Source of the DNA: Acidimicrobiia bacterium
GTDB taxonomy: Bacteria > Actinomycetota > Acidimicrobiia > Spongiisociales > ZC4RG35
Direction: 5' to 3'
Assembly (NCBI GenBank): GCA_028284765.1
Contig: JANQRA010000003.1
Coordinates: 144,500-208,499, forward strand
Length of the DNA: 64,000 nucleotides
The notes under the pieces were generated by a model. That model searched no databases. It was not told where the DNA came from and saw only the letters and a program-made list of their open reading frames with translations. A program made the translations under genes and the position numbers. Positions 8,467-32,888 of this stretch are shown one piece after another; within the stretch, counting starts at the first letter, position 1; every line of letters begins with the position of its first letter.

Positions 8467-8672
8467 GCGTCGCCGAACTCAGAGAGCTCACCAATGAGGA
8501 GCTGAACGAAGCGCTCATGGAGGCCAAAGAGGAGAAGTTCAATCTCCGCTTCCAGGTGGCGACAAACCAGCTCGACAACACAGCCCGTCTCACGACGGTG
8601 AAGAAAGAGATCGCTCAGATCCTCACGATTCTGAAGGAACGTGAGAACGCAGAGGAGACATCTGATGTCTGA
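8463..8672 (+). CDS. rpmC: 50S ribosomal protein L29
   Basis: 69 aa, [16 protein letters not shown]... Confidence 0.92.
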
Positions 8673-14862: not shown

Positions 14863-15647
14863 TCAGCATCAAGAGCCGCCGCGAGTTCGCCAAGATGCAG
14901 AAGGCGGGGGCGTGTGTTGCGGATGTCCATCGTCGGGTCCGTGAGGCAGCGGCGCCTGGTGTCTCTCTCCTGGAACTGGAAGAGATTGGTGCCTCCACTA
15001 TCGCCGAGCACGGCTGCACGTCGTCCTTCCTCAACTATTTGGGCACCTATCCGGCGACACTCTGTCTCTCACCCAACGATGTGATCGTCCACGGAATCCC
15101 CAATGAGTACCGGCTCCAGGAAGGCGACATCCTGTCGGTGGATGCGGGTGCGATCTTCGAAGGCTTTCATGGCGACGCTGCGTTCACCATGCCCATTGGA
15201 GAGGTGTCCGCTGAGGCGCAGCACCTCATCGACACCACTGAGGCCGGCATGTGGGCCGGTATCCGCGAGGTTCGCAAAGGAAATCGGCTCGGCGACATCG
15301 GCGCTGCCGTCGCCGCCATCGGTGATGCCCACGGGTATGGGGTTGTCGAGGAGTATGTCGGTCACGGCATCGGCAGGGAGATGCATGAAGAGCCGCAGGT
15401 CCCCAACTATGGAGAGCCGGGCAAAGGTCTCAAGCTGAAGACCGGGATGGCGCTCTGCATCGAGCCGATGTTCAACATCGGACAGCGTTTTACCAAGGTG
15501 GACGCTGACGGCTGGACGGTTCGGACCAACGACGGTTCACTCTCTGCCCACTGGGAACACATGGTGGCCATTACGCCCGACGGACCGATGGTGTTCACAG
15601 CAGCTCAGGATCCAGTGCCCGTCGACGAGGTTCACGCGACGCAATGA
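14859..15647 (+). CDS. map: Methionine aminopeptidase type I
   Basis: 262 aa, metal-binding residues conserved. ATGA overlap with adk. Confidence 0.93.
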   Translation: MISIKSRREFAKMQKAGACVADVHRRVREAAAPGVSLLELEEIGASTIAEHGCTSSFLNYLGTYPATLCLSPNDVIVHGIPNEYRLQEGDILSVDAGAIFEGFHGDAAFTMPIGEVSAEAQHLIDTTEAGMWAGIREVRKGNRLGDIGAAVAAIGDAHGYGVVEEYVGHGIGREMHEEPQVPNYGEPGKGLKLKTGMALCIEPMFNIGQRFTKVDADGWTVRTNDGSLSAHWEHMVAITPDGPMVFTAAQDPVPVDEVHATQ

Positions 15648-16003
15648 GCTCTGGGTCTCTCTACGAGATCCGTGACTACCACTATCGACGCGACCTCATG
15701 GATGAGTACCGCTCCTGGACGGTCAAGGCACTCAAAGTGCTGGAACCGAAGATGGACCTGGTCGGCTGGTGGCTCGATTCAGGTGAGGAGCCCAGAGTGA
15801 TGGGTTCAGATCCGATGGAGATGCCCCACGGTTCGGCCAACGTCACGTGGATCATCCGTTGGGACAGCCTCGACCAACGTGAGAAGCGATGGGACGCGCT
15901 CTGGACCGAGCAAGACTGGCTCGACGTCTGGGAAGAGCACCCCGGGTTCGAGGGCTACCACCAGTTGCTGGTTCGCTTCATGGAGAAGATCGAACCGGTC
16001 TAG
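15644..16003 (+). CDS. NIPSNAP family protein
   Basis: 119 aa. LYEIRDYHY... and W(I)IRWDSLDQREKRWDAL... match the NIPSNAP fold signature. The start overlaps the map stop (ATGA). Confidence 0.75.
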   Translation: MSSGSLYEIRDYHYRRDLMDEYRSWTVKALKVLEPKMDLVGWWLDSGEEPRVMGSDPMEMPHGSANVTWIIRWDSLDQREKRWDALWTEQDWLDVWEEHPGFEGYHQLLVRFMEKIEPV

Positions 16004-17202
16004 GCAGGAAGGGCACTCTCGGGATCGTCGAGGTGCATCCACCGATAGGCCGCGGTGAACCATGTGCCGGCCAAAACAACCAGCAATGCCAAAAGCATCA
16101 GCCACGGTGCCGGTTGCCACCAACCGATGAAGAGAACTAGCGCTGCCGCGGCAGTCAGAGTCCCGGCGATCGGGCCGTACAGCTCTGGTACACGTTCGTA
16201 ATCCTGCAGGGTGCGGGCGACCAGTACGAGCCAGAGCAGACCGGCGGCGATTGCTCCACTCATCAACCAGGCCGTGCCGGCAGGCACGTGATCGTCCGTG
16301 GCGTGTTCGACCATGCTCACCATGGCCGCTCCGGCTGCAGCGATCGCAAGCGTGACTGGGAGGTGGCCAAAGATCCAGCGTGTTCGGTCGAGCGAGTTGG
16401 CTCTTGGGTGGCGCCGCCCGACGAAGTCAAAGTACGACCACCAGAAGGCGAAGCCGATCATCAAACCGAGCATCCCGGTCACCACGACGATTGGTGTCAG
16501 GTCGGTAGAGCCCAGACCGTCGACCACCCCAACCACAACCTCGCCGAGCACGATGATCGTGAACAGTCCGAACCTCTCGACGAGGCTGTCCGTGGTGTCG
16601 AAGTCGATGCCCGAGATTGTCTCTTCACGCCGAACGATCACCATTCCGGAGACGATGTACAGCAGGACGAAACCGCCCCACACCCAGACCCGGGCTCCCT
16701 GAGGAACCCAGATAGTGCCAAACATGACAGCCGTGAACACAACGGAGGCACCGATGTATTGGGCGGTGATCCGGTTGTACTCGTCTGAGTCCTGCCTCCG
16801 AACGCCGTACCAGAGCAGAGTCAGCAACCCCATGAAGATGCCGTAGACCAGAGCGAATTCCTCACCGGTCTCCGTCGGTGCGCCCTCGGTGTAGACAGCC
16901 AGCCAAGCGAGCAGGAGCATCTGGGCAAAGACCATGGTTCGAGTTCGCCCGTCTTCGCGTCCATGTAGGTCGTAGTAGAGCGTGCCGTTCAGCCACCCGA
17001 GCCAGATGAGCCCAAAGATCGCTGCGAAGTCGACGACACCTTGCCAGCTGATGTTGTGGGCCAAGCCGTGCGCCGCCTGGGCAACCACGACCACATATAC
17101 GAGGTCGTAGAACAGCTCGAGGAAACTGACCGACCGGTCTTCGATTACTTCGCCATGTGCCCTGGGTGGTAACCAGAATCGCCTTCGGAACTCACTCGGC
17201 AT
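16000..17202 (-). CDS. Low-temperature-requirement A (LtrA)-like polytopic membrane protein
   Basis: 400 aa with about 10 transmembrane helices. The N-terminal VSFLELFYDLVYVVVV motif is characteristic of the LtrA family. Confidence 0.6.
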   Translation of the reverse strand: MPSEFRRRFWLPPRAHGEVIEDRSVSFLELFYDLVYVVVVAQAAHGLAHNISWQGVVDFAAIFGLIWLGWLNGTLYYDLHGREDGRTRTMVFAQMLLLAWLAVYTEGAPTETGEEFALVYGIFMGLLTLLWYGVRRQDSDEYNRITAQYIGASVVFTAVMFGTIWVPQGARVWVWGGFVLLYIVSGMVIVRREETISGIDFDTTDSLVERFGLFTIIVLGEVVVGVVDGLGSTDLTPIVVVTGMLGLMIGFAFWWSYFDFVGRRHPRANSLDRTRWIFGHLPVTLAIAAAGAAMVSMVEHATDDHVPAGTAWLMSGAIAAGLLWLVLVARTLQDYERVPELYGPIAGTLTAAAALVLFIGWWQPAPWLMLLALLVVLAGTWFTAAYRWMHLDDPESALPA

Positions 17203-17220
17203 GGAGCGAGATTGTAAGGC

Positions 17221-17682
17221 CTATTGGTGGGAAGCAACCTGCTCTTCTGCAGCTTTGGCCAGATCATTGACGAGCCCGTTCAGAGCCTTGGGCAGCCCCT
17301 TCTCCAGGCGCTTCGAAACTGTGCCCTTGAGGATTCCACCCTTGGGTTCCGCGGTGGTCTCCATGGTTATCTCGGTCTTGTCGCCATCCAGCGCCTTGAC
17401 GGTGAACGTTGTATGCGAGCTCTTCACCGGCATCCCCTTGGGAACGACATCGAGAGTGATCGACTCACCTTCTTCCCATCCAGTGACGGTCTCAATCGTC
17501 GAGCCGAAGGGGGCCAGTTCGCAGGTGCGAACCGTTCCGAGACCGGTTGCTTGATCTCCTTGGATTTCGCTGGTCTTCACCTGGTCGGTCCAGGAGGCGA
17601 TGTTGCCGAAATCGGCGAGTATGTCCCAGACGACCTCTTTTGGTGCGCTGGCGACGGTGGTTCCCTTGAGTTGGACAGTCAT
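17221..17682 (-). CDS. SRPBCC (polyketide-cyclase/START-like) ligand-binding protein
   Basis: Called from the internal ATG (MTVQLKGTTVASAPKEVVWDILADFGNIASW...). Typical Polyketide_cyc2 pattern. Confidence 0.7.
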   Translation of the reverse strand: MTVQLKGTTVASAPKEVVWDILADFGNIASWTDQVKTSEIQGDQATGLGTVRTCELAPFGSTIETVTGWEEGESITLDVVPKGMPVKSSHTTFTVKALDGDKTEITMETTAEPKGGILKGTVSKRLEKGLPKALNGLVNDLAKAAEEQVASHQ

Positions 17683-17703
17683 TGATCTTCCTTTCTTGAC
17701 TGG

Positions 17704-17752
17704 TCGGTCTAATATAGACACAACAAGAACGATCAGTCAAGAATGTTCTAGG
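17704..17752. promoter_or_regulatory. Candidate TetR operator: imperfect 12-nt inverted repeat in the divergent promoter region
   Basis: TCTTGACTGGTC at 17704-17715 and GATCAGTCAAGA at 17741-17752 are reverse complements with 1 mismatch. They sit between the SRPBCC and TetR genes. Confidence 0.35.
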
Positions 17753-17760
17753 ATCAGCAA

Positions 17761-18348
17761 ATGGCACGCACCAGAGAATTCGACACGGAAGACGCCGTAG
17801 CCCAAATGGCACAGGCGTTTTGGCGTAATGGCTACGACGCAACGGGTGTTGCCGAATTGGTTGACGCCACCGGTGTGGGCCGGGCGAGCCTCTATGGAGC
17901 GTTCGGTTCGAAGCGCGACATGCTGGAGCGCTCGCTTGACTGGTACCTCGACGAGACCATCGAACCCCTGGTCGTATCTCTCGAGTCGGGTCTCGATGCG
18001 ATCGAGCAGCGATTCCTCATGTTCGGGAAAGTCCTAGAGGCCATGCCGGAGCGTGCCCGGCTCGGTTGCATGATGGTCAACGTTGGGAGTGAGGTGGGGA
18101 GTGTCGACGAGCAGTTGGGGGTGAAGGCCGGCTCCTATCGCGATCGCTTTCGACTTGCCTTTGAGCGTGGGCTGACCGCCGCAGTGGAGGCTGGCGATAT
18201 CGAGGGACCTGTCGAAGGCCGTGCTCAACTCTTGACGTTGCTGATGATGGGCATGTTTGTTGCCATACGCAGTGGAGGAACTGTCGAGGAGATCACGGAG
18301 TTGGGAGCTGCAGCCCAGGCTGAAGTGCGATCCTGGAGAGTCAGCTAG
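17761..18348 (+). CDS. TetR family transcriptional regulator
   Basis: N-terminal HTH GYDATGVAELVDATGVGRASLYGAFGSKRDML. Transcribed divergently from the SRPBCC gene. Confidence 0.9.
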   Translation: MARTREFDTEDAVAQMAQAFWRNGYDATGVAELVDATGVGRASLYGAFGSKRDMLERSLDWYLDETIEPLVVSLESGLDAIEQRFLMFGKVLEAMPERARLGCMMVNVGSEVGSVDEQLGVKAGSYRDRFRLAFERGLTAAVEAGDIEGPVEGRAQLLTLLMMGMFVAIRSGGTVEEITELGAAAQAEVRSWRVS

Positions 18349-18728
18349 CTATCGAGCAGGTAGTCGACGAGAGCGTCGACTTCTTCCATTGTCAGCCGGA
18401 GAGTGGGCATCTCGACCTGCGCTCCAAAGTCGGGGACGATGAACGCTTGCGGGACTAGCAGTGACTGCCGAACATATCCGTCAGCCGAGAGACCGGATAC
18501 GCGCTCTCCCGCCAAAGCAGCGAGATCGGTCAGGTTGGGGCCAACGTTTGTCTGACTCACCTGGCGAGGCCCGGCGTGGCAGCCGACGCAGCCTTTCGTT
18601 CGGAAGATGCTCTCTCCATCGGCAACCGTGAGCTCAGTTGAAGGGGGCTCGTCGTCTGTGAGCACGACCACGGATGCGACAGTCAGGCCGATGGTGAGAA
18701 TCAGCCCGATTGCCAACCTAGGGGTCAC
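18345..18728 (-). CDS. Membrane-anchored class I c-type cytochrome
   Basis: 127 aa. N-terminal transmembrane helix, CVGCHAG heme motif, and a distal Met (EMPTL). Confidence 0.85.
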   Translation of the reverse strand: MTPRLAIGLILTIGLTVASVVVLTDDEPPSTELTVADGESIFRTKGCVGCHAGPRQVSQTNVGPNLTDLAALAGERVSGLSADGYVRQSLLVPQAFIVPDFGAQVEMPTLRLTMEEVDALVDYLLDS

Positions 18729-19222
18729 GCTGTTGCCTGGTGTCCGCTTTCTCTTCTGATGCGGATCAGTTCGGCGACCGTGAACATGGCGGTGAGCACA
18801 GCTGCGATGGGGAGTATGAGCTCGAGTGGCTCGATACCGGTGCCTTGTGGCGCAGCGATCGCCGCATCCGAGACTTCTACGGTGCCCATCTTCTGGATTT
18901 CCCAGCTGTCGCTGTTCACGCCCCAGGTCCAGCTGCCCTCACTCAAAGTCACCTCCACGGAGTACCGGCCCTCGCCCAGATTGGTGGCCTCGAAGCGCTG
19001 TACCTCTCCACCTTTGCCGCGGAACACCGCTTGGGTGTCGCCGGCATCAATCGGTGTTTGCCCGTGTGCGAGATAGGTGTATTCGAGGGTGTAAGTGGTG
19101 TCAGGCTCAAATGTGCCCGGAACAGAGTCCATCGAGATGATTCCCCATCCACCCGCGCTTGCGGCGAGCGGTAGGAGCGTCAAGGCAGCTACTAGGCCGA
19201 TAGCGGTCAGGGTCTTTCTCAT
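18725..19222 (-). CDS. Exported protein with signal peptide and C-terminal transmembrane anchor, function unknown
   Basis: Start from the internal ATG at 19222-19220 (MRKTLTAIGLVAALTLLPLAASA...). The C-terminal helix is LILPIAAVLTAMFTVAELI. The 398-aa ORF-track extension upstream has no coding character and overlaps the next gene. Confidence 0.6.
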   Translation of the reverse strand: MRKTLTAIGLVAALTLLPLAASAGGWGIISMDSVPGTFEPDTTYTLEYTYLAHGQTPIDAGDTQAVFRGKGGEVQRFEATNLGEGRYSVEVTLSEGSWTWGVNSDSWEIQKMGTVEVSDAAIAAPQGTGIEPLELILPIAAVLTAMFTVAELIRIRRESGHQATA

Positions 19223-19803
19223 CTGAGCTCTCCAATCTCTAGAGCAACGTGTCTTGTTCTTGGCTGGTTCCTGAAGATGAGATATGTGATCGAGGCTACG
19301 CCGATGATTGCAAGGAGACCGAAGGGAAGGTTCCATTCGGGTTTCGGCTGGGTGCTGGAGTATGAGAACCCGAGTGCCTCGAGCGTGCCTTCGAGATCTC
19401 CTTCGACCCGGTGCCAGCCGATCGCATCGCCTCCCCACCCGTCGAGACCGGGTTGTTTCGGCGTGTGGATCACCGGGCCATCTTTGGCGCCGAAGTAGAT
19501 GTGTTGTTCGATGCTGTACGGCTCGCCCCAGGTAAGAGTGATCGGTTCTCCCAGGTCGGATGGCTGGTCGATCTTGACTGCGAGGTGCGAGGCGAACCAG
19601 ATGCCGCTCATCTCCATCAGCTTGTTGAGGTTCTCTTGGGCTTCGCTGGTGTATGGCTGTCGGCTGAATAGCTCGATTGGTTCTTCGATCCCAGGGCCCG
19701 AGATGGTCGCTTTCGCCGGTCCCTTCGCAAAGGCCGGTATAGCTAGAAACCATGTCATGGCGACGATCGTTGCAATCAGAGTGATCCGTCTCATCACCAC
19801 CAA
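19219..19803 (-). CDS. Exported protein with signal peptide and C-terminal transmembrane anchor, function unknown
   Basis: 194 aa. Signal peptide MRRITLIATIVAMTWFLAIPAFA, C-terminal helix LLAIIGVASITYLIF. The stop overlaps the start of the downstream gene. Confidence 0.6.
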   Translation of the reverse strand: MVVMRRITLIATIVAMTWFLAIPAFAKGPAKATISGPGIEEPIELFSRQPYTSEAQENLNKLMEMSGIWFASHLAVKIDQPSDLGEPITLTWGEPYSIEQHIYFGAKDGPVIHTPKQPGLDGWGGDAIGWHRVEGDLEGTLEALGFSYSSTQPKPEWNLPFGLLAIIGVASITYLIFRNQPRTRHVALEIGELR

Positions 19804-19859
19804 TACACCGCCGATGACTGCAAGGTTCCCGGAACCTTCTCAACCTGGGCGGTGTAGTT

Positions 19860-20429
19860 GTGGGTGAAGTATCGGTGGAGGGCCGTCCGCTGAATGAGTC
19901 GGAGCTTGTTGCCAATGCCAAGAACGGAGATCTGGCCTCATATGAGCAGCTGGTCAGAGAGCACCAGACGATCGCCTTTCGCGTCGCCTACGTCGTCGTT
20001 CGGGACCACTCGGAGGCAGAAGACGTGACCCAGGATGCTTTGGTCAAGGCACATCACAATCTCAATCGTTTCAAAGATGGCTCTCCTTTTCGGCCTTGGC
20101 TTCTGAAGATCGTGCGCAACGAAGCCCTGAACCGTCGACGTGGTCTCGGCAGACGGGAGGCGATGACTCTCCGCCATGCGGTGGATCCGTCCTCGGGAGG
20201 TGCGGCCCCATCTCCCGAGACGGCTGTGGTCGATGCCGAAGATCAACGGGCCGTTCTCGAAGCACTCGATCGTCTCCCCGAGAGGTATCGAAGTGTCCTC
20301 GCAGCTCGGTTCTTGCTCGATCTGAGCGAAGAGGAAACGGCAACGATGCTCGGGGTGGCAAAGGGGACCGTGAAGTCACGCACCTCCCGTGGCCTGGAGA
20401 AGATGCGATCGATGTTGGGAGAGTCATGA
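19860..20429 (+). CDS. ECF (group 4) RNA polymerase sigma factor
   Basis: 189 aa. Sigma region 2 (DVTQDALVKAHHNLNRF...FRPWLLKIVRNEALN) and region 4 (GTVKSRTSRGLEKMR) are present. Confidence 0.9.
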   Translation: MGEVSVEGRPLNESELVANAKNGDLASYEQLVREHQTIAFRVAYVVVRDHSEAEDVTQDALVKAHHNLNRFKDGSPFRPWLLKIVRNEALNRRRGLGRREAMTLRHAVDPSSGGAAPSPETAVVDAEDQRAVLEALDRLPERYRSVLAARFLLDLSEEETATMLGVAKGTVKSRTSRGLEKMRSMLGES

Positions 20430-21097
20430 TCGACATCGAGCGCGCACTCAGGACGACAGAACTGGAATGGCCGGAAGCGGATGTCGCGGATCGTGTCATG
20501 CGCCGGGTTCGTGAACCTCGGTCGATGGATTTGCGCTGGCTGCGACCTGCCCTGGCCGTAGCTGTTGCGATGATCTTGCTTGTGGCGACTCCGCCCGGTC
20601 GTCAGGTTGTCGCCAACGTCCTGGAAGTCGCTGGCATCGAGATCGGTTGGGGAGATGTGGCGGCTGGCGTTGACTTGGAACTAGGTGAGGAAGTGGGGCT
20701 AGCCGATGTCGAGGGTCTGATTCCGGCGGACGCACCTGATGCCGTCTATGAGATGGACGGATATGTTCACATTGTTTGGTTCGGGGGTGGTGATCTTCCG
20801 GCGGCGGGAGACTTCGGCGTCGCCGTTCTCTACACCCAGAGCCAGGGGACCATTTTCACCAATGCGCTGAAGACTCTCGGCCCCGACACGGACATCCAGC
20901 CGGTGTGGGTGAGAGGTGTCGAAGGTGTGTGGATCGAAGGTGCTGAGCACAACGTCGAACTGGCAGGTCAGGAGGTTCGCCTGGCAGCAAACGTCCTGCT
21001 TTGGCAGGAGGGTTCTACCGCACATCGAATAGAGACCACGGGCGCCTTAGAAGAGGCTTTGGAGTTGGCCGAATCCCTCAGCCAACCAGCCCCGTAG
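20426..21097 (+). CDS. Putative anti-sigma factor: single-pass membrane protein with an extracytoplasmic domain
   Basis: ATG at 20426 overlaps the sigma-factor stop (ATGA). Short cytoplasmic N-terminus, transmembrane helix ALAVAVAMILLVA, then a ~170-aa extracytoplasmic domain. No ZAS HxxxCxxC motif. Confidence 0.6.
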   Translation: MIDIERALRTTELEWPEADVADRVMRRVREPRSMDLRWLRPALAVAVAMILLVATPPGRQVVANVLEVAGIEIGWGDVAAGVDLELGEEVGLADVEGLIPADAPDAVYEMDGYVHIVWFGGGDLPAAGDFGVAVLYTQSQGTIFTNALKTLGPDTDIQPVWVRGVEGVWIEGAEHNVELAGQEVRLAANVLLWQEGSTAHRIETTGALEEALELAESLSQPAP

Positions 21098-21170
21098 AAC
21101 CCCTCGAACCTGCATGGCGTTGCGCCTGGCGCGACGCTGTGCAGGCTCGACGAATGAGGCTCGATCAGAT

Positions 21171-22851: not shown

Positions 22852-23802
22852 TTGCTGATTGTTCAACGTCCCCAAATCGAAATCGAGGAAGCCCACAACA
22901 ACAGGGCAAGGTTCGTCGTAGAACCGCTGGAGCCCGGGTTCGGCTACACCCTCGGCAACACGATGCGTCGCACGCTGTTGAGCCGGATCCCCGGCGCAGC
23001 CATCACGTCCATCCAGATCGAAGGTGTCGAGCACGAGTTCTCGACCATCTCCGGTGTGGTTGAAGACGTCGTCGACATGATTCTCAACATCAAGAGGATC
23101 GTTGTCACCCTGGAAGGCGTCGACGAGCAGGTGCTCTATCTGTCGGCCAAGGGTGCCGGCGATGTGAAGGCCAAAGACCTCAAGCTCCCGGCTGGTGTCG
23201 AGGTCGTCAACCCCGATGCTCACATCGCAAGGCTCAGTGCCTCGGGCCGTCTCGAGATGGAGCTCACCGTGGCTCCCGGAGTCGGATACCGCACGGCAGA
23301 CGGAAACAAGGGTGGCTCCAGCGCCATCGGTGTGATTCCTGTCGACTCGATCTTCTCGCCAGTGCGCAAGGTCGCCTACCGCGTCGAGAACACACAGGTC
23401 GGTCAGATGACCAACTACGACAAGCTGGTCATCGATGTCGAGACCAACGGTGCGATTGAGCCGAAGGACGCCGTGTCGTCCGCCGGCAAGACACTTGGTG
23501 AGCTGATGGACATCTTCGCCGAGGTCGGACAGGGTGAAGGTCTGGAACTGGTCGACGTGGTCCCCGAGGCCACCGGCTCCCCGGACCTCGAACTGCCAAT
23601 CGAGGCACTCGATCTTTCCGAGCGTCCCCGCAACTGCCTGCGTCGTGCTCAGGTCAAGACTGTTGGTGAGCTCGTGGAGCGCACCTCCGATGACCTGCTC
23701 AACATCACGAACTTCGGTCAGAAGAGTCTCGACGAGGTCATCGCCAAGCTCGACGAGCTGGGCCTGAGCCTCGCTGACTCGCCGGCAGGAAGCACCGTCT
23801 GA
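22852..23802 (+). CDS. rpoA: DNA-directed RNA polymerase subunit alpha
   Basis: TTG start, 316 aa, conserved alpha N-terminal and C-terminal domains. Confidence 0.95.
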
Positions 23803-24152
23803 TGCCACGCCCTCGTAAGGGCCCGCGGTTTGGCGGCTCTCCGGCGCATGACAGGCTGATCATGGCCAACCTGGCCACGGATCTGTTCATGCACGAGAAG
23901 CTGACCACGACCGAGGCCAAAGCCAAGGCTCTGCGTCCCTATGCGGAGAAGCTGATCACCAAGGCCCGCCAAGGTGATTTACACGCACGTCGCACCGTGA
24001 TGAAGACCATCACTAACAAGGAAGCCGTGCACAAGCTCTTTGAGGATGTCGCCCCTCGTTACGAGGACCGGCCGGGTGGCTACACCCGTATCACCAAGCT
24101 CGGTCCCCGGCGTGGGGACGGTACCGAAGAGGCGATCATCGAGCTCGTCTAG
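23802..24152 (+). CDS. rplQ: 50S ribosomal protein L17
   Basis: 116 aa, [25 protein letters not shown]... Confidence 0.94.
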
Positions 24153-24176
24153 GTCCACAGATTCATATCCACGAAC

Positions 24177-24203
24177 GCCGCCCTCCGGGGCGGCTTTTTG
24201 TTT
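24177..24203 (+). terminator. Rho-independent terminator after rplQ
   Basis: GCCGCCC-tccg-GGGCGGC stem followed by TTTTTGTTT. Confidence 0.7.
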
Positions 24204-24232
24204 GGGCGACGGGAGTAGGGTCCTCACTGTCC

Positions 24233-27200
24233 GTGACTATCAGGAGACCCATGTTTCGTCGTTCCGTGTCCGTCCTGTCCGTAATGGCGATGGTCTTCGC
24301 TCTGGTGGTGGCACCGTTCCCAGTCGAAGTTGATGCCGCGGCCTGTACGCCGACCGGAACCGCGGTGACAACTGAACCTGAACTTCAGGCCGAGATGGTG
24401 CTGGCTAATGCTGCGGGTGCGGACTACACGATCTGTGTCGACCCCGGTACATATCTGATCACAGCGACCCTGGACTACACCGGCACCGACACCCTGACCA
24501 TCATCGGAACCGGACCAACAGCAGACCTCCACATCCTCGACGGACAAGACACCAGACAGATACTTACCACCACAACAGGATCGCTCACTCTCAACACCCT
24601 CCAATTCCAGAATGGGGTCTCCACTGAACATGGAGGTGCGGTCAGCGCGAGCGACGCGTCAGGCACCGGGTTGAACTTCAACGTGATCGACTTGTCCTTC
24701 GTCGATAACGATGCGCCGGAATTCGGTGGTGGCGCCTTTCTCGATTCAGACTTTGCGAGTGGTGGTGTTGTTTCCGTGATTGACTCCACATTCACTGGGA
24801 ACACGGGCGGCAACGGCGGGGGTCTCTACGTTGACGGTGGCGCCGGTCAGGACATCGTGTCTGGTAATACGTTCACGGGAAACGCTGCTGACGACACGGC
24901 CGGACCTTCGTTTGGTAACGGTGGGGGTCTCCACGTCGACCGGTCACGAGCACTGCTGATTAGCGACAACTCGTTCACGATGAATACTGCAGTTGAGGGC
25001 GGCGGTGCGTTCGTGCGGCGCTCCAGCGAGGCATCTATTGCAGACAACTCGTTCACGCAGAATTCGGCCACAGGAGACGACGGCGGGGGAGGCCTGTTTG
25101 TCGACAACACCGAACCCGCGACCATCGACTCGACCTTCACCAACAACACTTCCACAGTTGAAGGCGGAGGTCTTTCGATCGACCGGAGCGGTGACGACGG
25201 CGCCGTGCAGATTCTCGGAGCGTTCAATGGGAACAGCGGCTCCTCAGGGGGAGCGATATTCATCGATCGAAGCGAAAGCACCACGATCACTGCCAGCTTC
25301 GACGGCAACACCGCAACCGGGCCACTCGGCGACACGGTCGGTGGCGGAGCGCTGCATATCAATGCCAATGCTGACAATGAGTTTCTGATCGATGGCAGCA
25401 CGTTCACCGGCAACTCGTCTACGAATTCGCACGGGGGAGCGATTCTCGTGACTGCTTCGTCGGAGCCCGTGTCCATAGTCGACTCGACGTTCACCTCGAA
25501 CAACGCAGCCGAAAACGGCGGTGCGATTGGGGCCACGACGTTGACGGCGACACTTTCTGTCACCGGCTCTGATTTTGATTCCAATGGAGCTGGGCAATAC
25601 GGCGGTGCGATTGACACCTGCTGCGTGGCTGACCTCGGAGATGTGACGATCAGCGACTCCACTTTCGATCAGAACACAGCCGGGCAGTCAGGAGGCGCTG
25701 TTCGCCAATGCTGTGGTGAGCCTGGCACCACAGCATCCTTGACGGTTAGCGACTCGACATTCACCAACAACGAGGCAGGATTGACGTCGGGCGGGGCCAG
25801 GGGTGGCGCGATCTACCAATGCTGCGAGGTCGGGGACACAACTATTGCTGATTCCACGTTCATCGGGAACAAGGCCCTCGACGCTTCTCTTAACGACTTC
25901 AACGCCGGAGGCGCTGTAGCCACGTCCAGCGAAGCTGGTGACGTGACCATCACGGGTTCGATGTTCCACGAAAACGAAGCGACGTTCGATGGAGGTGCGG
26001 TGCGGATCTGCTGCGGCGAATCCATCGAGCTCACCGTCGCGGATAGCACCTTCACATCGAATGAGAGCGGGGCCTTGGGTGGTGCCATCAGCCTCGACTC
26101 TGTTGCCGCGGGCAACGGCGAGATGTCCGTCACCAACTCGTACTTCGAGGACAACTCCGCCGAGGAAGGTGGAGGCGCCATCGGGGTTAGCTCGTTGCCA
26201 GACTCCGTGCTGAGCCTTGCCGATTCGACATTCGTCGGCAACTCGTCACCAGGGTTCGGGTCCGCAGTAAGCATCAACAGCAGTGCGGGGGCGACAGTTG
26301 ATGCAGTTCGTGTCGTCTTCGACGGCAATACGGCCACCGAGGACGACGGCGGCGCATTGTTCCTGAGAAGCATTGGGTCGGCTGTAGTCGAATACTCCCT
26401 GTTCAGTGAGAACACGGCCGTGGGTGATGCCGGCGGAATGAAAGTCAACGACGTGGACGACATCACGATCCGCGGCACGACCTTTGTCGGCAACTCGGCC
26501 GGTGACGCTGGCGGTGCCTTCGCACAGATCCGGTCTAACGCGCTCATCGAGAACTCGACGTTCGTCGGAAACTCTGCTGGCGAGGACGGCAACCTATATC
26601 AGGCAAACAACGACGCCGGATACGACGGGGAGGTCGCGCTGATCCATGTCACAGCGGGCGCCGACCAGGACATCTTCTTGGAGTCAAGTGGTGGCGGCTC
26701 GTCGACCCTCAACGTGACCTCCTCCGTTCTCGCTGGTTGCAGCGGTGGGACGACGGTTTCGGGTGGTCACAACTTTGATACGGACGGCGCTTGTGGTTTG
26801 GGCGGTCCGGGTGATATTGCGGGTGCGGATCCGTTGTTGGGTCCGTTGGCTGATAACGAAGGGAAGACTGCTGGTGCTCCTGGCATGGAGCGGGTGATTC
26901 AGACGATGTTGCCTGGGTTGTTGTCTCCGTTGGTAAATGCTGGTGCTTCGTTGCCTACTGATCAGCGTGGGGTGGCTCGTCCGTACGGGTCGGCTCCTGA
27001 TATCGGGGCGGTGGAGTTCGTGTTCGACCCGCCTGCTAACTACGACCCGTTCACTGATGATGACGGCAGCATTTTCGAGAATGACATTGAGTGGATTGCT
27101 TGGCATGGGATCACCCGTGGGTGTAATCCGCCGGCGAACACTCTGTTCTGTCCGGGTAATGATGTGAGCCGTGAGGCGTTTGCGGCGTTGATGAGCCGGG

Positions 27201-27598
27201 CGTTGGGGTTGACTGAGATCGACCCTGGCATCGACTTCACCGATGTTGCTGATTCGAACATCTTCGAGAATGACATTCTCAGGTTGGCGACTGCTGGGAT
27301 CACGAAGGGTTGTAACCCTCCGACGAACGACGAGTTTTGTCCTAAGGACGTGTTGTCGAGGGAGGCTTTGGCTGCGTTCTTTGTCCGAGGCTTCGGCTAT
27401 ACGGACATCGACGCGGGGATTGATTTCGTGGATGTTCCTAATAGCAACATTTTCCAGGCTGACATTCTGAAGTTGGCGACGGCGAAGGTGACTCGGGGTT
27501 GTAACCCTCCGACGAACGACTTGTTCTGTCCTAAGGATGATGTGAAACGGGACACGTTTGCTGCGTTCATGAAACGGGCCTTACGACCCGACGGCTAA
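24233..27598 (+). CDS. Secreted right-handed parallel beta-helix surface protein: CSLREA-like N-terminal domain, about 17 PMP-type (GGA[IFLV]...FxxN) repeats, a DQRG...DIGAxE module, and three SLH-like cell-wall-anchoring repeats
   Basis: 1121 aa. Signal peptide MFRRSVSVLSVMAMVFALVVA. N-terminus ACTPTG...ELQAEMVLAN. Repeats such as SDNSFTMNTAVEGGGAFV, VDSTFTSNNAAENGGAIGA and ADSTFTSNESGALGGAISL. Then PTDQRGVARPYGSAPDIGAVEF. Finally three repeats of FTDV..IFENDI..AGITKGCNPPTNDxFCPKDVLSREA. Confidence 0.8.
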   Translation: MTIRRPMFRRSVSVLSVMAMVFALVVAPFPVEVDAAACTPTGTAVTTEPELQAEMVLANAAGADYTICVDPGTYLITATLDYTGTDTLTIIGTGPTADLHILDGQDTRQILTTTTGSLTLNTLQFQNGVSTEHGGAVSASDASGTGLNFNVIDLSFVDNDAPEFGGGAFLDSDFASGGVVSVIDSTFTGNTGGNGGGLYVDGGAGQDIVSGNTFTGNAADDTAGPSFGNGGGLHVDRSRALLISDNSFTMNTAVEGGGAFVRRSSEASIADNSFTQNSATGDDGGGGLFVDNTEPATIDSTFTNNTSTVEGGGLSIDRSGDDGAVQILGAFNGNSGSSGGAIFIDRSESTTITASFDGNTATGPLGDTVGGGALHINANADNEFLIDGSTFTGNSSTNSHGGAILVTASSEPVSIVDSTFTSNNAAENGGAIGATTLTATLSVTGSDFDSNGAGQYGGAIDTCCVADLGDVTISDSTFDQNTAGQSGGAVRQCCGEPGTTASLTVSDSTFTNNEAGLTSGGARGGAIYQCCEVGDTTIADSTFIGNKALDASLNDFNAGGAVATSSEAGDVTITGSMFHENEATFDGGAVRICCGESIELTVADSTFTSNESGALGGAISLDSVAAGNGEMSVTNSYFEDNSAEEGGGAIGVSSLPDSVLSLADSTFVGNSSPGFGSAVSINSSAGATVDAVRVVFDGNTATEDDGGALFLRSIGSAVVEYSLFSENTAVGDAGGMKVNDVDDITIRGTTFVGNSAGDAGGAFAQIRSNALIENSTFVGNSAGEDGNLYQANNDAGYDGEVALIHVTAGADQDIFLESSGGGSSTLNVTSSVLAGCSGGTTVSGGHNFDTDGACGLGGPGDIAGADPLLGPLADNEGKTAGAPGMERVIQTMLPGLLSPLVNAGASLPTDQRGVARPYGSAPDIGAVEFVFDPPANYDPFTDDDGSIFENDIEWIAWHGITRGCNPPANTLFCPGNDVSREAFAALMSRALGLTEIDPGIDFTDVADSNIFENDILRLATAGITKGCNPPTNDEFCPKDVLSREALAAFFVRGFGYTDIDAGIDFVDVPNSNIFQADILKLATAKVTRGCNPPTNDLFCPKDDVKRDTFAAFMKRALRPDG
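27049..27585 (+). repeat. Three tandem ~186-nt repeats encoding the SLH-like modules (roughly 80% nucleotide identity)
   Basis: Shared nucleotide blocks, for example GGTTGTAACCCTCCGACGAACGAC is identical in repeats 2 and 3. Confidence 0.7.
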
Positions 27599-28380
27599 CC
27601 GGCAATAACGCCGAGCAGCACTCCGAGCATGAGGATCGCGACTCCGAAGAGGAGTACGTGAGTCGGAGTCGTGCGACCCGGTAGCCAGCGAGAGGCGAGC
27701 ATCGGATCGGAGTAGATAACCGCGCCGAACACGATCACGAGGGCTCCGGCGATCAGCATGAACGCTGACACGTAGCCCGGAAGAAGCAGGGCCAGAATGA
27801 CCGCACCAAACGCGACACCGAACATCAAGCGGGTGAATACCCACTCCGGCAGATAGGGCCCGAGCCGGTCGCTGGCCCGATCGATAGTCGAGTCAACCCA
27901 GGCAAGAACCTTGCCGCCAAACGACTGTGGAGCAGCGTCCGAGGTCGTCTTCGCTGCTGGTTTCTTCGTACGCCCCTTCTTGGGCGCGGGTTCTTCGCGT
28001 GGCTCGAGACGCACGGGAGCTTCGACGACGGGTGCCGGCTCCGGTCTTGGCTCATCTACCGGTGCGGGCGCGACAGCCTTCGCCTCGGCCTTGTCTTTCA
28101 CACCCTTCTTTTTGCGCTTGAACCGTGACCGCTTGGCAGTCAGCTCTTCGTTGAAGCGCTCCAGCTCTTGAAGCTCGAGAAGGATTTGATCACCCTCGGC
28201 GGCAATGCGATAGCCCTTTGGGGTCGGCTCCATCCGAATATCGGACAAGGGCCATTCGCCGATCGGCACGTCACCCGCGGCAATAGAAAGCACACCGTCT
28301 TCCAATTCGACGGTCGCATCGAGGCCTTTGACGTCGCCAATGGCTTTGAGAGAGGCTGCAAATGTCCCCATTGAGGACAT
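27595..28380 (-). CDS. Hypothetical membrane protein: cytoplasmic N-terminal domain, Lys/Pro-rich linker, C-terminal transmembrane helices
   Basis: 261 aa. Linker KRSRFKRKKKGVKDKAEAKAVAPAPVDEPRPEPAP... and 3-4 C-terminal transmembrane segments. The stop overlaps the convergent beta-helix gene stop. Confidence 0.5.
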   Translation of the reverse strand: MSSMGTFAASLKAIGDVKGLDATVELEDGVLSIAAGDVPIGEWPLSDIRMEPTPKGYRIAAEGDQILLELQELERFNEELTAKRSRFKRKKKGVKDKAEAKAVAPAPVDEPRPEPAPVVEAPVRLEPREEPAPKKGRTKKPAAKTTSDAAPQSFGGKVLAWVDSTIDRASDRLGPYLPEWVFTRLMFGVAFGAVILALLLPGYVSAFMLIAGALVIVFGAVIYSDPMLASRWLPGRTTPTHVLLFGVAILMLGVLLGVIAG

Positions 28381-28410
28381 TATCGGCTGGTTGTGTTCGA
28401 CCTTTTGGGT

Positions 28411-28710
28411 TTAGTTGGCGACGTCCAAGACGAATACGCCACCAATGAAGAGGACGAAGAGGACCAGCCCGATACCCAGCAGGACCGTTCCGATGATCCC
28501 GAGGATTCGACCGGCGTTTGCGGTCCCGCGGTTTGAAGGATCGCGCCGTCCCGCATCGATGGCGGCCAGCTCTTTGTTGCCGATATTCCAGGCGAATGGG
28601 GCGAGAACGCCACAAATCACAATGCCGAGAATTCCAAGAACCAGCGCCGTTGTGGCCTGGCTCGACTCCGGATATGCGCCGCCTTCAGTTGGGAATTGGG
28701 GTGTCGACAT
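28411..28710 (-). CDS. DUF4190-like small membrane protein
   Basis: Internal ATG of the 281-aa ORF. 99 aa, TALVLGILGIVICGVLAPFAWNIGNKEL plus a second transmembrane helix. Confidence 0.55.
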   Translation of the reverse strand: MSTPQFPTEGGAYPESSQATTALVLGILGIVICGVLAPFAWNIGNKELAAIDAGRRDPSNRGTANAGRILGIIGTVLLGIGLVLFVLFIGGVFVLDVAN

Positions 28711-28767
28711 GTGACTGAGTATCGCACATCCGACACAGGCTTGTCTCGGATGTAGCCTGACCGGGCG

Positions 28768-29682
28768 GTGACCAAGCCTCAATACCTCGACTTCAACAGG
28801 GAAGACTGGGCAAGCCTTCGTGGGCGAACCCCACTCAGCCTGACTGAGGCGGAAGTCGAGAAGCTCCGGGGTATGAATGTGAATCTCGACCTGGACATGG
28901 TCGAAGACACCTTCCTTCCATTGTCCAGGCTTCTCAACCTGTACGTACAGGGAGCGCAACTGCTCTCGTCTGTGACTGACACCTTCCTGGGGACACCGCC
29001 CGTGCCACGGCCCTTCCTCTTGGGGGTTGCCGGTTCGGTGGCAGTCGGTAAGTCGACCATCGCCCGTGTGCTTGAGTCGCTTCTGGCCCGATGGCCCCAT
29101 CACCCATCGGTCGAGCTGGTGACAACTGACGGGTTCCTCTATCCCAACGAAGAGTTGGAGCGGAGAGGTCTGATGGACCGCAAGGGTTTCCCGGAGAGCT
29201 ACAACCGCGCGGCACTCCTTGACTTCGTCACACGTGCTGACGCCGGCGAGGATCACCTCGAGATCCCGGTCTACTCACACATTCAGTACGACATCGTGGA
29301 AGGGGAGACCCGGGTTGTTGCCCGACCTGACATCCTCATTGTCGAGGGCCTCAACGTGCTCCAGGCCGGAGACAGCGGAGCCTTTGTCTCAGACCACTTC
29401 GACTTCTCGATATACGTCGACGCTGATATCGAGGACATTCGCCGCTGGTACATCGAACGGTTCATGACCCTGAAGGACACTGCATTCACTCAGGAGAACG
29501 CTTACTTCCGGCGCTACGCGGAGCTTGATGAACCGGCAGCGATCAAGATCGCCGAAGGCATCTGGGAGGAAATCAACGAAGTGAACCTCGTAGAGAACAT
29601 CCGACCCACACGCGACCGAGCTTCGTTGATACTCGAGAAGGCGTCGGATCACACCGTCAGAAAGGTGCGTCTCCGTCGCTAG
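28768..29682 (+). CDS. coaA: Type I pantothenate kinase
   Basis: 304 aa. P-loop [20 protein letters not shown] and a conserved CoaA core. Confidence 0.88.
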
Positions 29683-31025
29683 CCGGGAAAGGAGACCTCG
29701 AATAGGTCCCATTCGTCCGGTACACCTTTGAGCTCGAACCGACCACAGGCCTCGAACTCCAAAGCCGAGCCGGCAACCAGGTCTTTCACCGTTCGACTCA
29801 CCATGATTCCGCCGGACTCTGCAACGTCCATGACACGGCTGGCGATGTGGACAGCCAGGCCAGCAACGTCACCGTCCCTGAGCTCGACTTCGCCCGTGTG
29901 CAACCCGGCCCGGATCGGAACCCCCATGTTCTGGAGCCCTTCGAGTAGTTCGATCGCACAGAGGATCGCCCGTTGTGGGCCGTCGAAGATGGCGAGGATC
30001 CCATCGCCGGTGCTCTTGATGAGTCGTCCACGATGCTGTTCGACGATCGAAGTGACAGTGTCCTTGTGGGCTGCCAGGAGGTCGAGCCATCGATCCTCAC
30101 CCACGTCGGCGGCCATGGCCGTGGAGCCGACGATGTCTGTGAACAGGACGGTGGCCAGCATCCGGTCTGAGTCGATCTGTTGGCGGTCGCCCGTCAGGAA
30201 CTCCTGGATCTCGTCGAGGATCGGCCCGAAGTCACCGGCGTAGAAGGGGAGTGTGTCGGCACCCGTCATCTCTACGTAGGTGGCATCGAGTCTCTCGGCG
30301 ATGAACTGCCCATAGGCAGCACGGTGGAACCGTGCATCTTTCCGGTTTAGGACCAAGGTTCTCGCCTGGACTGACGGCAAGACACCGCGAACGTCGGTGT
30401 TGGCAATCCAGGTGAGGGCTTCGCCACCAGTCCCTGGTGGCATGGAGAGGCGATTCTGCCGTAGCCAGGACTCGCCAAACCGACGGTCTTCGGCCATGGA
30501 TGGCGCCACCAATCGCAGGGGCGCAGTGGAGTGCCCGTAGTTGTCCTTCCACTGCTTGGCGAGGGATTCCAAGACTTCGTCAGGCGCGCCAATCGGATAG
30601 TCGTCGTCCCTGCGAATACGAGTAAAGCTATTGATCAGGATCAGGTCGGTGAACCGGTCCGGGTGGAGGGCGGCCAAGACGAGTGCCAGAGTCCCTCCTT
30701 CGACATCCCCGATCAAGACTGCTTCTTCAAACTCGACCTTGTCGAGGACGGCCATGACGTCGTCGAGGTGTTCCTCGACCGGGAGCGCTCGCCCGGTTCC
30801 ATGGTGATCGGACACACCGGTGCCCCGTTTGTCGATGAAGACGACCCGACCGAAGGTCCCAAGTCGTTCCAGGTAGCGCCGAGCGGCAGGTTCTTCCCAG
30901 ATGACTTCCACATTGGTCAGCCAGTTGGTGATGAAAACGATGCTGCGAGACCCGTTTCCGAACACCTGATATCCCACGAACCCTCCGGGTGTCTCGCAGT
31001 ACTGGGTCTTTGGGGCTGCCATCAC
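29679..31025 (-). CDS. Alpha/beta-hydrolase fused to a class III adenylate/guanylate cyclase (LipJ-like architecture)
   Basis: 448 aa. The C-terminal catalytic domain [12 protein letters not shown]...[11 protein letters not shown]...GLHTGEV is a class III cyclase. The N-terminal half has an alpha/beta-hydrolase fold. Confidence 0.8.
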
Positions 31026-31072
31026 CAGGCACCTTATTGGCTGCCCGGTCGGTACCCTGCGCCACCGTGAGG

Positions 31073-31588
31073 ATGTTCACCAAAGCCGGTAGGGCGGCAA
31101 TATTCGACCGCGGTGTCTATACCGAGGCCTTCTTTGACGACGACACGATGGCTGACGGCGCGCTGGTTGTGGCTGCCGTTGGCGCCCTGACGTATGTCGG
31201 CATCCTGGTCCGCTTTGGCCGACTCGACGCGTTCAGCGTCACCGACCTATTCGCCCTGCTGATCGGGTCGGTGGCCTCTTGGTTGATACTGGGTTTCGCC
31301 ACATGGTTTGCAGCGACCCGTCTGTTCAATGCAAGCGCACGCCCCCAGACTCTCATTGGGCTCCAGGGTCTCGCCGCTCTTCCACTCCTCCTGGACATCC
31401 TTGGATCGCCCTTCTCCTGGATTGGGTTCCTCTGGTATCTGGCGGTCCTGGTCCTGGCTACGAAGGAAGGGGCAGACCTCGACTTTCGGACTGCGAGTGT
31501 GTCGGTGCTTATCGGGGCGGCAGCAGCCGCTCTAGTCAGAGCCTTGCTCAATGTGCCTTTTGGTCTGTTGAGCGGTGTGTTCGCCTGA
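31073..31588 (+). CDS. Yip1-like polytopic membrane protein
   Basis: Internal ATG (MFTKAGRAAIFDRGVYTEAFFDDD...) with 4-5 transmembrane helices. The longer ORF-track start at 30989 would overlap the cyclase gene. Confidence 0.45.
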   Translation: MFTKAGRAAIFDRGVYTEAFFDDDTMADGALVVAAVGALTYVGILVRFGRLDAFSVTDLFALLIGSVASWLILGFATWFAATRLFNASARPQTLIGLQGLAALPLLLDILGSPFSWIGFLWYLAVLVLATKEGADLDFRTASVSVLIGAAAAALVRALLNVPFGLLSGVFA

Positions 31589-31591
31589 GAG

Positions 31592-32323
31592 ATGGCGATC
31601 TATCGTCTCGACCTTGCCTATGACGGCTCCGGGTTCCGGGGCTATGCACGTCAGGAAGGCCAGCGAACGGTTCAGGGGGAGTTGGAGCAGGCGTTAGCGA
31701 CTCTGCTCAAAGGGAGTGTCCCAACATCGGTCGCCGGTCGCACCGACGCCGGAGTCCACGCGCTCGGCCAGGTCGTGTCGTTCCCGTACGACGAGACGAT
31801 CGACGCTTTCAGATTCAAGCGGAGCCTGAACGGTCTGATCGGCCCAGAGGTTTCAGTCAGTCGTGTTTCAGAGGTGCCTGACGGCTTCAGCGCGAGGTTC
31901 TCGGCCAAATGGCGACGCTACCGCTACTTGATCGACCAATCCGAGGCGATCAACCCCCTGAGCAGGGGTTACGTGTGGCATGTCAAACAGGAGTTAGACA
32001 GCGATGCCATGGGGCAGGTCGGGGTGGGGTTCATCGGCGAGCACGACTTCACCTCCTTCTGCAAGTCGGTCGAAGGCAAGAGCAATGTCAGACGGGTGAC
32101 GGAGCTGACGCTCACGACGACGGGCCCGGAGATCGAGTTGACCATCGAGGCCAATGCCTTCTGTCATCAAATGGTGCGGTCAGTGGTCGGCTATCTGTAC
32201 GACGTGGGCCGAGGCTTCAGCAAGGCATCTGCCAGCGAAGTCATCGAAGCTCGTGATCGGGCGGCGGTTGCCACGGTTGCGCCACCTCACGGGCTGACTC
32301 TCATGGCTGTCGGATACGACTGA
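31592..32323 (+). CDS. truA: tRNA pseudouridine(38-40) synthase
   Basis: 243 aa, [14 protein letters not shown]...[15 protein letters not shown]. Confidence 0.9.
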
Positions 32324-32429
32324 ACGCGATTGGCCTAGTCAGCAGCTTGCGAATATCATTGTGTCCGCTTCGTTCGAAGCCGTTTCCCCAAACGCTCCCC
32401 GTGCTTTCAGCATGCGAGGAATCTCAAAT

Positions 32430-32888
32430 ATGACAATGAACAAGACCTATTCGCCCAAACCGGGCGATATCGAACGTGCCTGGCACGTCGTGGACGCGAC
32501 CGACCTCCCATTGGGCAGGCTGGCGTCCGAGATCGCACAGGTTCTACGTGGCAAGCACAAGCCCACCTACGCACCGCACATGGACACCGGTGACTTCGTG
32601 GTTGTCGTGAACGCCGACAAAGTCGTCGTTACCAGCGACAAGACACAGTCGAAGATCTATTACCGCCACTCCGGCTACCCCGGAGGCATCAAGGCGGAGA
32701 CATTCGCATCCCTCAAGGAGCGGCGTCCGGAAGCGATCATGGAACGTGCCGTCAAGGGCATGCTCCCCAAGAACAAGCTTGGCCGGAAGATGGCCACCAA
32801 GCTGAAGGTCTACGCCGGCCCGGATCATCCGCACACCGCGCAGAGCCCTCAGCCCCTCGAATTCAACATCCGAAAGGTGGAAGCCTGA
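32430..32888 (+). CDS. rplM: 50S ribosomal protein L13
   Basis: Internal ATG with a GAGGAA ribosome-binding site 9 nt upstream. [23 protein letters not shown]... Confidence 0.9.

Follow-up and report, generated by a model that had tools for sequence, protein, structure and literature searches.

Strand-asymmetric silent-site composition confined to the anchor module of an Acidimicrobiia beta-helix gene

The 64,000-nucleotide stretch analysed here (the window; NCBI GenBank assembly GCA_028284765.1, contig JANQRA010000003.1, positions 144,500 to 208,499) comes from an Acidimicrobiia bacterium and carries, at 24233–27598 on the + strand, a gene for a secreted PMP-repeat beta-helix protein with a C-terminal choice-of-anchor Q/triple-SLH anchor (1121 aa, or 1115 aa from the alternative start at 24251 used in the Logan gene call). 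Within this gene, from 26726 to 27577 (+ strand, 284 codons), silent sites are nearly all G or T. The tract is a discrete block with sharp edges and a distinctive substitution signature, it encodes a native-like protein, and nothing comparable occurs elsewhere in the DNA we compared it with. What we infer from this, tentatively and with a probability of roughly 0.4, is that the gene is a mosaic, the tract being a homeologous recombination block from a related or extrachromosomal copy whose coding strand was keto-skewed. A “keto” base in this context is G or T, as opposed to A or C. That inference takes in the recombination event itself, the kind of donor involved and whatever pressure gave the donor its composition.

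Third-base composition and the edges of the tract

An earlier note, made from the sequence alone, had described a sharp codon-usage step near the junction of the PMP repeats and the anchoring module. The step is real. A two-segment likelihood test on third bases places the change point at codon 831/832, i.e., at 26726, 14–36 nt from the position first proposed, with twice the log-likelihood difference (2dLL) at 94.8 compared with a maximum of 20.8 in 300 permutations, and a sliding view of third bases also has a clear step there. Upstream of it (24233–26725, + strand, comprising the signal region and the PMP/beta-helix repeats), codon usage is ordinary for the host and agrees codon by codon with that of 61 other genes of the window, so the claim that the 5′ part uses the genome’s own codons holds. 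Inside the tract, TTG makes up 77–81% of leucine codons vs 13% in the background, GCT and GCG together make up 97–100% of alanine codons (GCC 3% vs 43%), CCT and CCG make up 96–100% of proline codons, and A-ending codons are almost absent.

The earlier note had read this as a shift towards T-ending codons and, from that, as the mark of a donor with lower GC3 (G+C content at third codon positions). T-ending codons did rise, but G-ending codons rose too: from the 5′ part to the tract, third-base A fell from.13 to.02 and C from.45 to.24, while G rose from.24 to.38 and T from.18 to.35. GC3 thus moved only from 0.69 to 0.62, and the signal is not mainly a GC3 drop but a strand-asymmetric enrichment of keto bases over A and C at the third base. 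Codon positions 1 and 2 have the same composition on both sides of the change point, and A is at normal levels there within the tract (0.24 and 0.25), its loss being confined to position 3.

To put a number on the contrast, we measured the fraction of G/T-ending codons among four-fold boxes in 100-codon windows. It is 0.83–0.94 in the tract vs 0.47 ± 0.08 (maximum 0.65) in 1276 windows covering all other genes. Native genes sharing the tract’s codon set, which the earlier note had named as a possible objection, are absent from the 64 kb, and comparable G/T enrichment is also absent from the contig of the gene’s ortholog (see below) and from ~180 kb of related Acidimicrobiia DNA. The overall skew of the window is ordinary. 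A generic 3′-end codon effect was rejected as well, since 114 genes give a shift of 0.013 ± 0.091. We did not use a change-point scan of stop-to-stop open reading frames (ORFs) as a null, because it was contaminated by overlapping frames and leaders.

Both edges are abrupt. On the left, the switch is complete within two to three codons of 26726, and the G/T run begins three to four codons ahead of the first residues conserved with the ortholog, which bears out the proposed coincidence of the step with the junction between PMP repeats and anchor module. On the right, the last G/T-ending codon is CGG at 27575–27577. It is followed by a tail of ordinary usage (27578–27598, + strand) made up of six sense codons (GCC TTA CGA CCC GAC GGC) and the stop codon TAA. 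All six end in A or C, for which the naive probability under tract frequencies is ~0.26^6 = 3e-4, so the pattern stops short of the stop codon, to which it had been thought to extend. One short patch of ordinary codons (GTC CGA GGC TTC GGC, ~27363–27383) also lies inside the second SLH repeat; it is only marginally improbable by chance. Beyond the stop, the convergent gene at 27595–28380 (− strand) has G/T-ending fractions of 0.39–0.64 on its own strand (40-codon windows) and thus no reciprocal skew.

The anchor module, its ortholog and the substitution signature

The beta-helix part of the protein is recognised by the Pfam family Chlam_PMP (81 bits vs a cut-off of 20.6, E 1.1e-23). It contains multiple PMP repeats of the GGA(I/L/V)/FxxN type, and TIGR01376 (POMP_repeat) matches five stretches of the product. 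The choice-of-anchor Q domain follows at 26828–27019 (+ strand, aa 866–929; NCBIfam NF041518, E 1.8e-14, 53.7 bits vs a cut-off of 25). It holds the DQRG...DIGA motif that the earlier note had singled out and lies directly upstream of three C-terminal repeats of ~63 residues each. These SLH-like repeats (+ strand, 27065–27253, 27254–27442 and 27443–27595) were delimited by the 189-nt period of internal DNA repeats and by the family profile, and the third carries a C-terminal motif, KRDTFAAFMKR-LRP-G, in common with the ortholog.

The gene’s own repeats score 16.1–16.6 bits with Pfam SLH (PF00395), below the 20.8 cut-off. At family level, judged from profile matches, they are nevertheless SLH repeats: all 14 aligned members of the anchor family match Pfam SLH at E <= 0.01 (best E 2.4e-16), PF00395 is present on nearly all matches of the module in the protein search, and the anchor-family profile matches the triple-SLH structures Sap (3PYW, 6BT4) and SbsB (4AQ1) over profile positions 8–169 with E-values of 1.8e-10 to 1.9e-9. 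The anchor identity first proposed is therefore upheld for the family, with the reservation that the gene’s own Pfam SLH score is below threshold. Because its three repeats are only 69–75% identical to each other in DNA, the triplication is old.

The family alignment also reveals an Acidimicrobiia subtype of SLH repeat, in which an invariant G-C-N-P-P-x-N-x-x-[FY]-C-P insertion occurs in each of the three repeats. Its two invariant cysteines per repeat suggest a disulfide. Weak Pfam Rap1a matches were found in 8 of the 14 members (best E 2e-4).

The module’s best match is the protein P0001, encoded on L001, a 3.4-kb metagenome contig with 63% GC. P0001 is the syntenic ortholog, since the three genes downstream of it also follow the beta-helix gene in the window. 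The two modules align without gaps over residues 825–1052 (227 residues) at 72–73% identity and share a derived C-terminal motif, whereas the next-best relatives of the module reach <= 61% identity and match in the SLH part only. Left of codon ~826 the two proteins cannot be aligned as one piece: the PMP parts share 41% amino acid identity with many indels. The flanking orthologs are 70% (CoaA), 68% (DUF4190) and 45% (the convergent membrane protein) identical between the window and L001. On these alignments, the module’s divergence from its ortholog (73%) is what vertical descent predicts, and at the protein level the suggestion that the module is foreign is not supported, its closest known relative being the module of the syntenic ortholog. 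Any donor must therefore come from the same narrow clade or be a copy of this gene.

Codon usage in the ortholog’s module is ordinary, with ~0.5 of codons G/T-ending, third-base C at ~0.5 and third-base T at ~0.08. L001 also has the same convergent arrangement, with a gap of 17 nt, and no skew. Another 15 related anchors from Acidimicrobiia genomes and metagenomes are ordinary too, with a shift from upstream sequence to module of +0.03 ± 0.09. We therefore rejected the skew as a property of the SLH/choice-of-anchor family and regard it as specific to the window’s lineage.

Other features of these proteins deserve mention in their own right. P0001 has two SLH repeats (L001:1041–1427) to the three of the window’s gene (27065–27595), and its second repeat seems to join the front half of repeat 2 to the back half of repeat 3, pointing to a deletion by unequal crossover in the P0001 lineage. 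Besides the protein itself, the protein collection contains no relative of the PMP part (24233–26725) at more than 32% identity. At only 41% identity to its ortholog, this part is evolving much more quickly than the anchor module and the adjacent genes. An unrelated SLH-anchored gene, at 8612–10540 of L006 (another Acidimicrobiia metagenome-assembled genome, MFD05684.bin.2.275; also found at metagenome locus L013), shows a weaker 3′ shift in the same direction: in its last 141 codons, third-base A, C, G and T are.03,.29,.30 and.38 vs.11,.45,.29 and.15 upstream (2dLL 42). That shift starts in the first SLH repeat, just after the conserved GCNP...FCP motif, and could reflect recombination among anchors or a recurrent local process.

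Four-fold sites in the tract are.008 A,.083 C,.467 G and.442 T (e.g., 53 T vs 1 A), with a pyrimidine share of 0.50 vs 0.58 in the background. For alanine, glycine, proline and threonine, the tract’s T(+C) and G(+A) shares equal the C+T and A+G shares of the background. Usage of the six-fold amino acids leucine and arginine follows from this single base composition (TTG expected 14.8, observed 17; CGG and CGT as observed), so a separate preference for TTG is unnecessary. Read in this way, the pattern is clade-typical codon usage overlaid by near-saturated C-to-T and A-to-G change on the sense strand. A pure transition model is approximate rather than exact: from ortholog to tract, third bases changed from C to T 37 times, C to G 11 times, G to T 9 times and A to T 5 times (never to A), and valine deviates. 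The tract’s T:C ratio varies with the middle base of the codon (36:2 after C, 25:13 after G, 23:28 after A and 18:23 after T), but this dependence of C loss cannot be told apart from an effect of codon degeneracy in which C is selected for in two-fold boxes.

Replacement sites show the same bias. Changes from A/C to G/T outnumber the reverse by 50 to 25 (p = 0.005), or by 44 to 24 (p = 0.02) once synonymous first-position changes in leucine codons are removed, whereas three control comparisons are near-symmetric (36:35, 59:55 and 70:55). Taken from aligned sequences, this bias favours mutation pressure on this strand over an explanation by synonymous-codon selection alone. The tract’s sense strand is G-rich (G.34, C.22) and its antisense strand C-rich (C.34, G.22).

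Possible origins of the tract

Were the tract an imported block, the 3′ anchor module (choice-of-anchor Q domain plus three SLH repeats) would have been swapped in a single event with another copy of the module, with strand exchange spanning the whole shared stretch and halting at the end of homology. The left limit of exchange would be set by the hypervariable PMP repeats and the right limit by the last few codons ahead of the convergent gene, which is poorly conserved. The donor would come from the same narrow Acidimicrobiia clade, as a sister-lineage ortholog, a paralog or a copy on another replicon, and its coding strand would have been pushed near saturation by silent C-to-T and A-to-G change while selection held the protein constant. 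Both changes would be deamination-type transitions of the kind expected on a strand that is often single-stranded, and the process behind them could be gene-wide or replicon-wide, e.g., if the donor copy was at times single-stranded.

A discrete exchange predicts abrupt edges on both sides with ordinary usage outside, and it gives a natural account of the geometry, because the edges lie at the limits of the conserved region. It is also favoured by a composition alien to the host, as no other gene segment in the window exceeds 0.65 G/T-ending, and heteroduplex repair in patches could account for the ordinary codons in SLH repeat 2. The mutational look of the signature and its absence from the ortholog’s module and the 15 related anchors count in favour as well. 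A precedent exists in the mosaic pbp genes of Streptococcus and Neisseria, into which recombination has brought blocks that are ~20% divergent. The earlier note’s proposal of a mosaic made by recombination thus stands in part: the block is discrete, its edges are abrupt and coincide with the anchoring module, and it is absent from the other genes examined, but an origin in place is a rival to it.

Several points weigh against import. We know of no cellular genome whose silent sites are ~91% G/T and < 1% A, so the donor’s composition would itself need an unusual process. Donor and recipient modules would be only ~70–75% identical in DNA, which would make RecA-type exchange rare. The tract’s composition bears no trace of a return to host usage, which would require a recent import, although the same metagenomes yielded nothing similar. 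No phylogenetic incongruence is visible at the distance of L001, the sole ortholog, with 73% identity for the block and 70%, 68% and 45% for the flanks. Finally, searches of GTDB genomes, JGI metagenomes, IMG/VR, plasmids, phages and the protein collection turned up neither a donor nor a closer copy of the module, although this negative is weak: the word-indexed protein search missed the window’s own protein (P0121) when queried with the module or the choice-of-anchor Q domain, and returned it when queried with the 5′ part. Each serious reading needs one unknown, either an oddly composed donor copy or a local generating process.

The second of these is what an origin in place requires. It holds that, under purifying selection that preserved the protein, persistent strand-specific mutation confined to ~850 bp changed C to T and A to G at silent sites, perhaps by deamination of the non-template strand in recurrent R-loops or stalled bubbles, as the gene runs head-on into an overlapping convergent gene, or by a templated or retro-conversion mechanism. 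We consider this, the main rival, unlikely, though well short of negligible. It needs no donor (none was found), and the module’s 73% identity to its ortholog equals that of the flanking genes (68–70%), as vertical descent predicts. In the signature, C-to-T and A-to-G change on the sense strand is superimposed on host/clade usage, with replacement sites biased likewise, the extreme composition gives no sign of drift to host usage, as expected of a maintained equilibrium, the G-rich sense strand favours R-loops, and the unrelated L006 gene has its weaker tract in the same direction. Against it, both edges are abrupt and lie at domain limits, which a diffuse mutational field would not give, and only the last quarter (850 nt) of a 3.4-kb transcription unit is affected, with no internal promoter signal. 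The downstream convergent gene lacks a reciprocal skew, the L001 ortholog has the same convergent arrangement but is not skewed, and there is no general 3′-end effect in the 114 genes. The strand asymmetries reported for bacterial transcription, moreover, amount to a few percent, not near-saturation. Framed more broadly, an undescribed local chromosomal process, whether R-loop-type single-strandedness or re-copying of the 3′ module from RNA or single-stranded DNA, may have driven silent C and A almost completely to T and G within this sharply bounded segment; this too we hold to be doubtful, and if it held, the L006 tract would count as another example. Selection acting directly on the nucleic acid is improbable. 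It could have favoured a C-poor mRNA that escapes Rho, a C-rich antisense Rho-loading site against convergent read-through, an antisense ORF or a codon set suited to the anchor’s translation kinetics. Such selection would naturally be limited to one domain, the antisense strand is C-rich and G-poor, with a folding energy much weaker than that of the sense strand (-241 vs -328 kcal/mol), the overlapping convergent genes leave no room for an intrinsic terminator, and an antisense frame is open for 298 codons (26687–27580). However, that open frame is a trivial consequence of third-base A near 0, its product is low-complexity and rich in R, T, S, Q and P, and it is not conserved in the ortholog, where third-base A is normal. 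Replacement sites are biased too, unlike the prediction of synonymous-site selection; a Rho-loading site needs ~100 nt rather than 850; the ortholog has the same gene arrangement without the skew; and the host’s optimal codons are C-ending (r = -0.16), while A-ending codons are absent, contrary to selection for rare codons.

Classical horizontal transfer from a distant organism of lower GC3, with a foreign anchor cassette fused to a native beta-helix gene, is the earlier note’s proposal taken literally and is very improbable. The codon usage is indeed sharply unlike that of every native gene of the window, and SLH anchors sit on many different N-terminal domains across Acidimicrobiia, i.e., the module is evolutionarily mobile. 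However, by far the best relative of the module is that of the syntenic ortholog (ungapped, with shared derived motifs), which has the same architecture and junction. The GC3 shift is small and the signature is one of strand asymmetry, not low GC; the tract ends within the ORF with no mobile-element genes or repeats alongside; and the plasmid, phage and viral collections gave no matches. The sequence comparison with the ortholog thus largely refutes such a transfer, and a phage, plasmid or viral source is unsupported, given the same lack of matches in those collections. The source of the window is a metagenome-assembled genome, which raises the question of an artefact, either an assembly chimera or a systematic sequencing or polishing error. 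This is barely credible. The Logan assembly of run SRR20820731 (L016) was made independently and is 100% identical to window positions 23745–32576, across the tract, and in the sister run SRR20820730 a contig (L018) matches the flank with 100% identity. No error process would alter only the silent positions of an intact frame with conserved motifs, as is the case here, and both flanks are syntenic with L001.

The sister run also holds a close relative. Its contig L017 is 95.3% identical (42 mismatches, 4 gaps) over 23406–24405, which covers rpoA-rplQ and the start of the beta-helix gene. The presence of L017 and L018 in one run means that two closely related strains or species co-occur. Region 24405–27950 was not assembled contiguously in that run, and L017 stops short of the module. 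The module of this 95% relative, or of any closer one, did not turn up in exact-protein look-ups with RplQ, CoaA and DUF4190, in a cluster listing or in searches for which the 5′ part and the choice-of-anchor Q domain served as queries.

More specific explanations were also tried and found no support. The antisense gene is a by-product of third-base A near 0. A structured RNA or known RNA family is unsupported: the tract has no significant RNA structure (z = -1.3 for the sense strand and -2.4 for the antisense strand, 20 shuffles) and no Rfam match. The preferred codons of highly expressed host genes, as seen in 25 genes of the window for ribosomal proteins, EF-Tu, EF-G and RpoA, are C-ending ones plus GGT and CGT. 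The tract’s shift is uncorrelated with that preference (r = -0.16), and host translational optimisation was rejected accordingly. A cluster of rare codons for slow translation does not fit either, because such a cluster would draw on A-ending codons too, which are just as rare in host genes but missing here. A simple sigma-70-type scan, which is weak for Actinobacteria, gave no signal of an internal promoter or separate transcription unit.

Known systems resemble the tract in part. Like the mosaic pbp genes of S. pneumoniae and Neisseria, it is a sub-genic block with abrupt edges and native flanks that covers a functional domain, which in those genes was exchanged, and the DNA difference is ~20–25%. 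In the pbp genes, however, donors have been identified and the block’s protein is more divergent than the flanks, whereas here the protein is as close to its ortholog as the flanks are, the block is marked by strand-asymmetric silent composition, and the searches turned up no donor.

The composition also resembles that of vertebrate mitochondrial DNA, whose H-strand undergoes C-to-T and A-to-G deamination while single-stranded, which sets ND6 apart from the other genes. The same two transitions on one strand, near saturation at four-fold sites and with one purine and one pyrimidine nearly gone, are seen here, but in mitochondria the asymmetry is replicon-wide and tied to the mode of replication, whereas here it covers 850 bp of one bacterial chromosomal gene. 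Bacterial transcription also leaves an asymmetry, an excess of C-to-T on the non-transcribed strand, and the tract’s coding strand likewise gains T and loses C. The reported effects are small and cover whole units, whereas here the effect is near-saturating and limited to the last quarter of one.

The variable regions of diversity-generating retroelements (DGRs) are likewise sharply bounded 3′ tracts of surface-protein genes with a base- and strand-specific signature. A DGR was rejected for its wrong signature and wrong size and because the window holds no template repeat: the tract spans 850 bp vs ~100–150 bp, A is lost only at silent positions, C is depleted too, and the protein is conserved (73%) rather than diversified. 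Among anchors, the triple-SLH domains of B. anthracis Sap (3PYW) and G. stearothermophilus SbsB (4AQ1) have the same three tandem ~60-residue repeats, and a choice-of-anchor domain upstream, here NF041518, is part of the resemblance. The present anchor differs in being an Acidimicrobiia-specific subtype with a G-C-N-P-P...F-C-P motif inserted in every repeat, and in a sequence of its own that falls below the Pfam SLH threshold.

Genomic neighbourhood and significance

The beta-helix gene directly follows the rpoA-rplQ operon, from which it is separated by a strong intrinsic terminator after rplQ (24177–24203, + strand; a 7-bp all-GC stem, then TTTTTGTTTG), and it therefore forms its own transcription unit. 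Downstream, the convergent membrane-protein gene (27595–28380, − strand) has normal codon usage and is syntenic in L001. The two stop codons overlap by 4 nt at 27595–27598 (TAA on the + strand, TAG on the − strand), which makes an intergenic terminator impossible for either gene. The window contains no second copy of the module and no repeats flanking it (blastn with word size 7 and tblastn found only the module and its internal repeats), and its ORFs include no mobile-element genes flanking the tract. The gene neighbourhood and the named matches both point to Acidimicrobiia.

Further away, ~5.5 kb of non-ribosomal ORFs on both strands (15644–21100) break the usual secY-adk-map ... rpsM-rpsK-rpsD-rpoA-rplQ order. 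They include ORFs at 16000–17202 (− strand), 17761–18348 (+ strand) and 19219–19803 (− strand). Another ORF, at 20096–21097 (+ strand), has atypical third bases (GC3 0.59, third-base T 0.24–0.30), and the frame as called may not correspond to a true gene. At 29679–31025 (− strand), adjoining the CoaA-like kinase gene, a 447-aa protein combines alpha/beta-hydrolase and guanylate/adenylate-cyclase Pfam families (Logan annotation), an unusual pairing.

If the tract is a recombination block, cell-wall anchor modules are exchanged as units between close Acidimicrobiia lineages or replicons, and this would imply an unsampled relative or element with a mitochondrion-like keto skew on its coding strands. 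An origin in place would make it a rare natural example in which mutation pressure on a bacterial chromosome is sub-genic, strand-specific and near-saturating, with implications for the part that R-loops, convergent transcription or retro-conversion play in shaping bacterial genes. Either way, we advise caution with compositional detectors of horizontal gene transfer, because strongly “foreign” codon usage can encode a native, orthologous protein.

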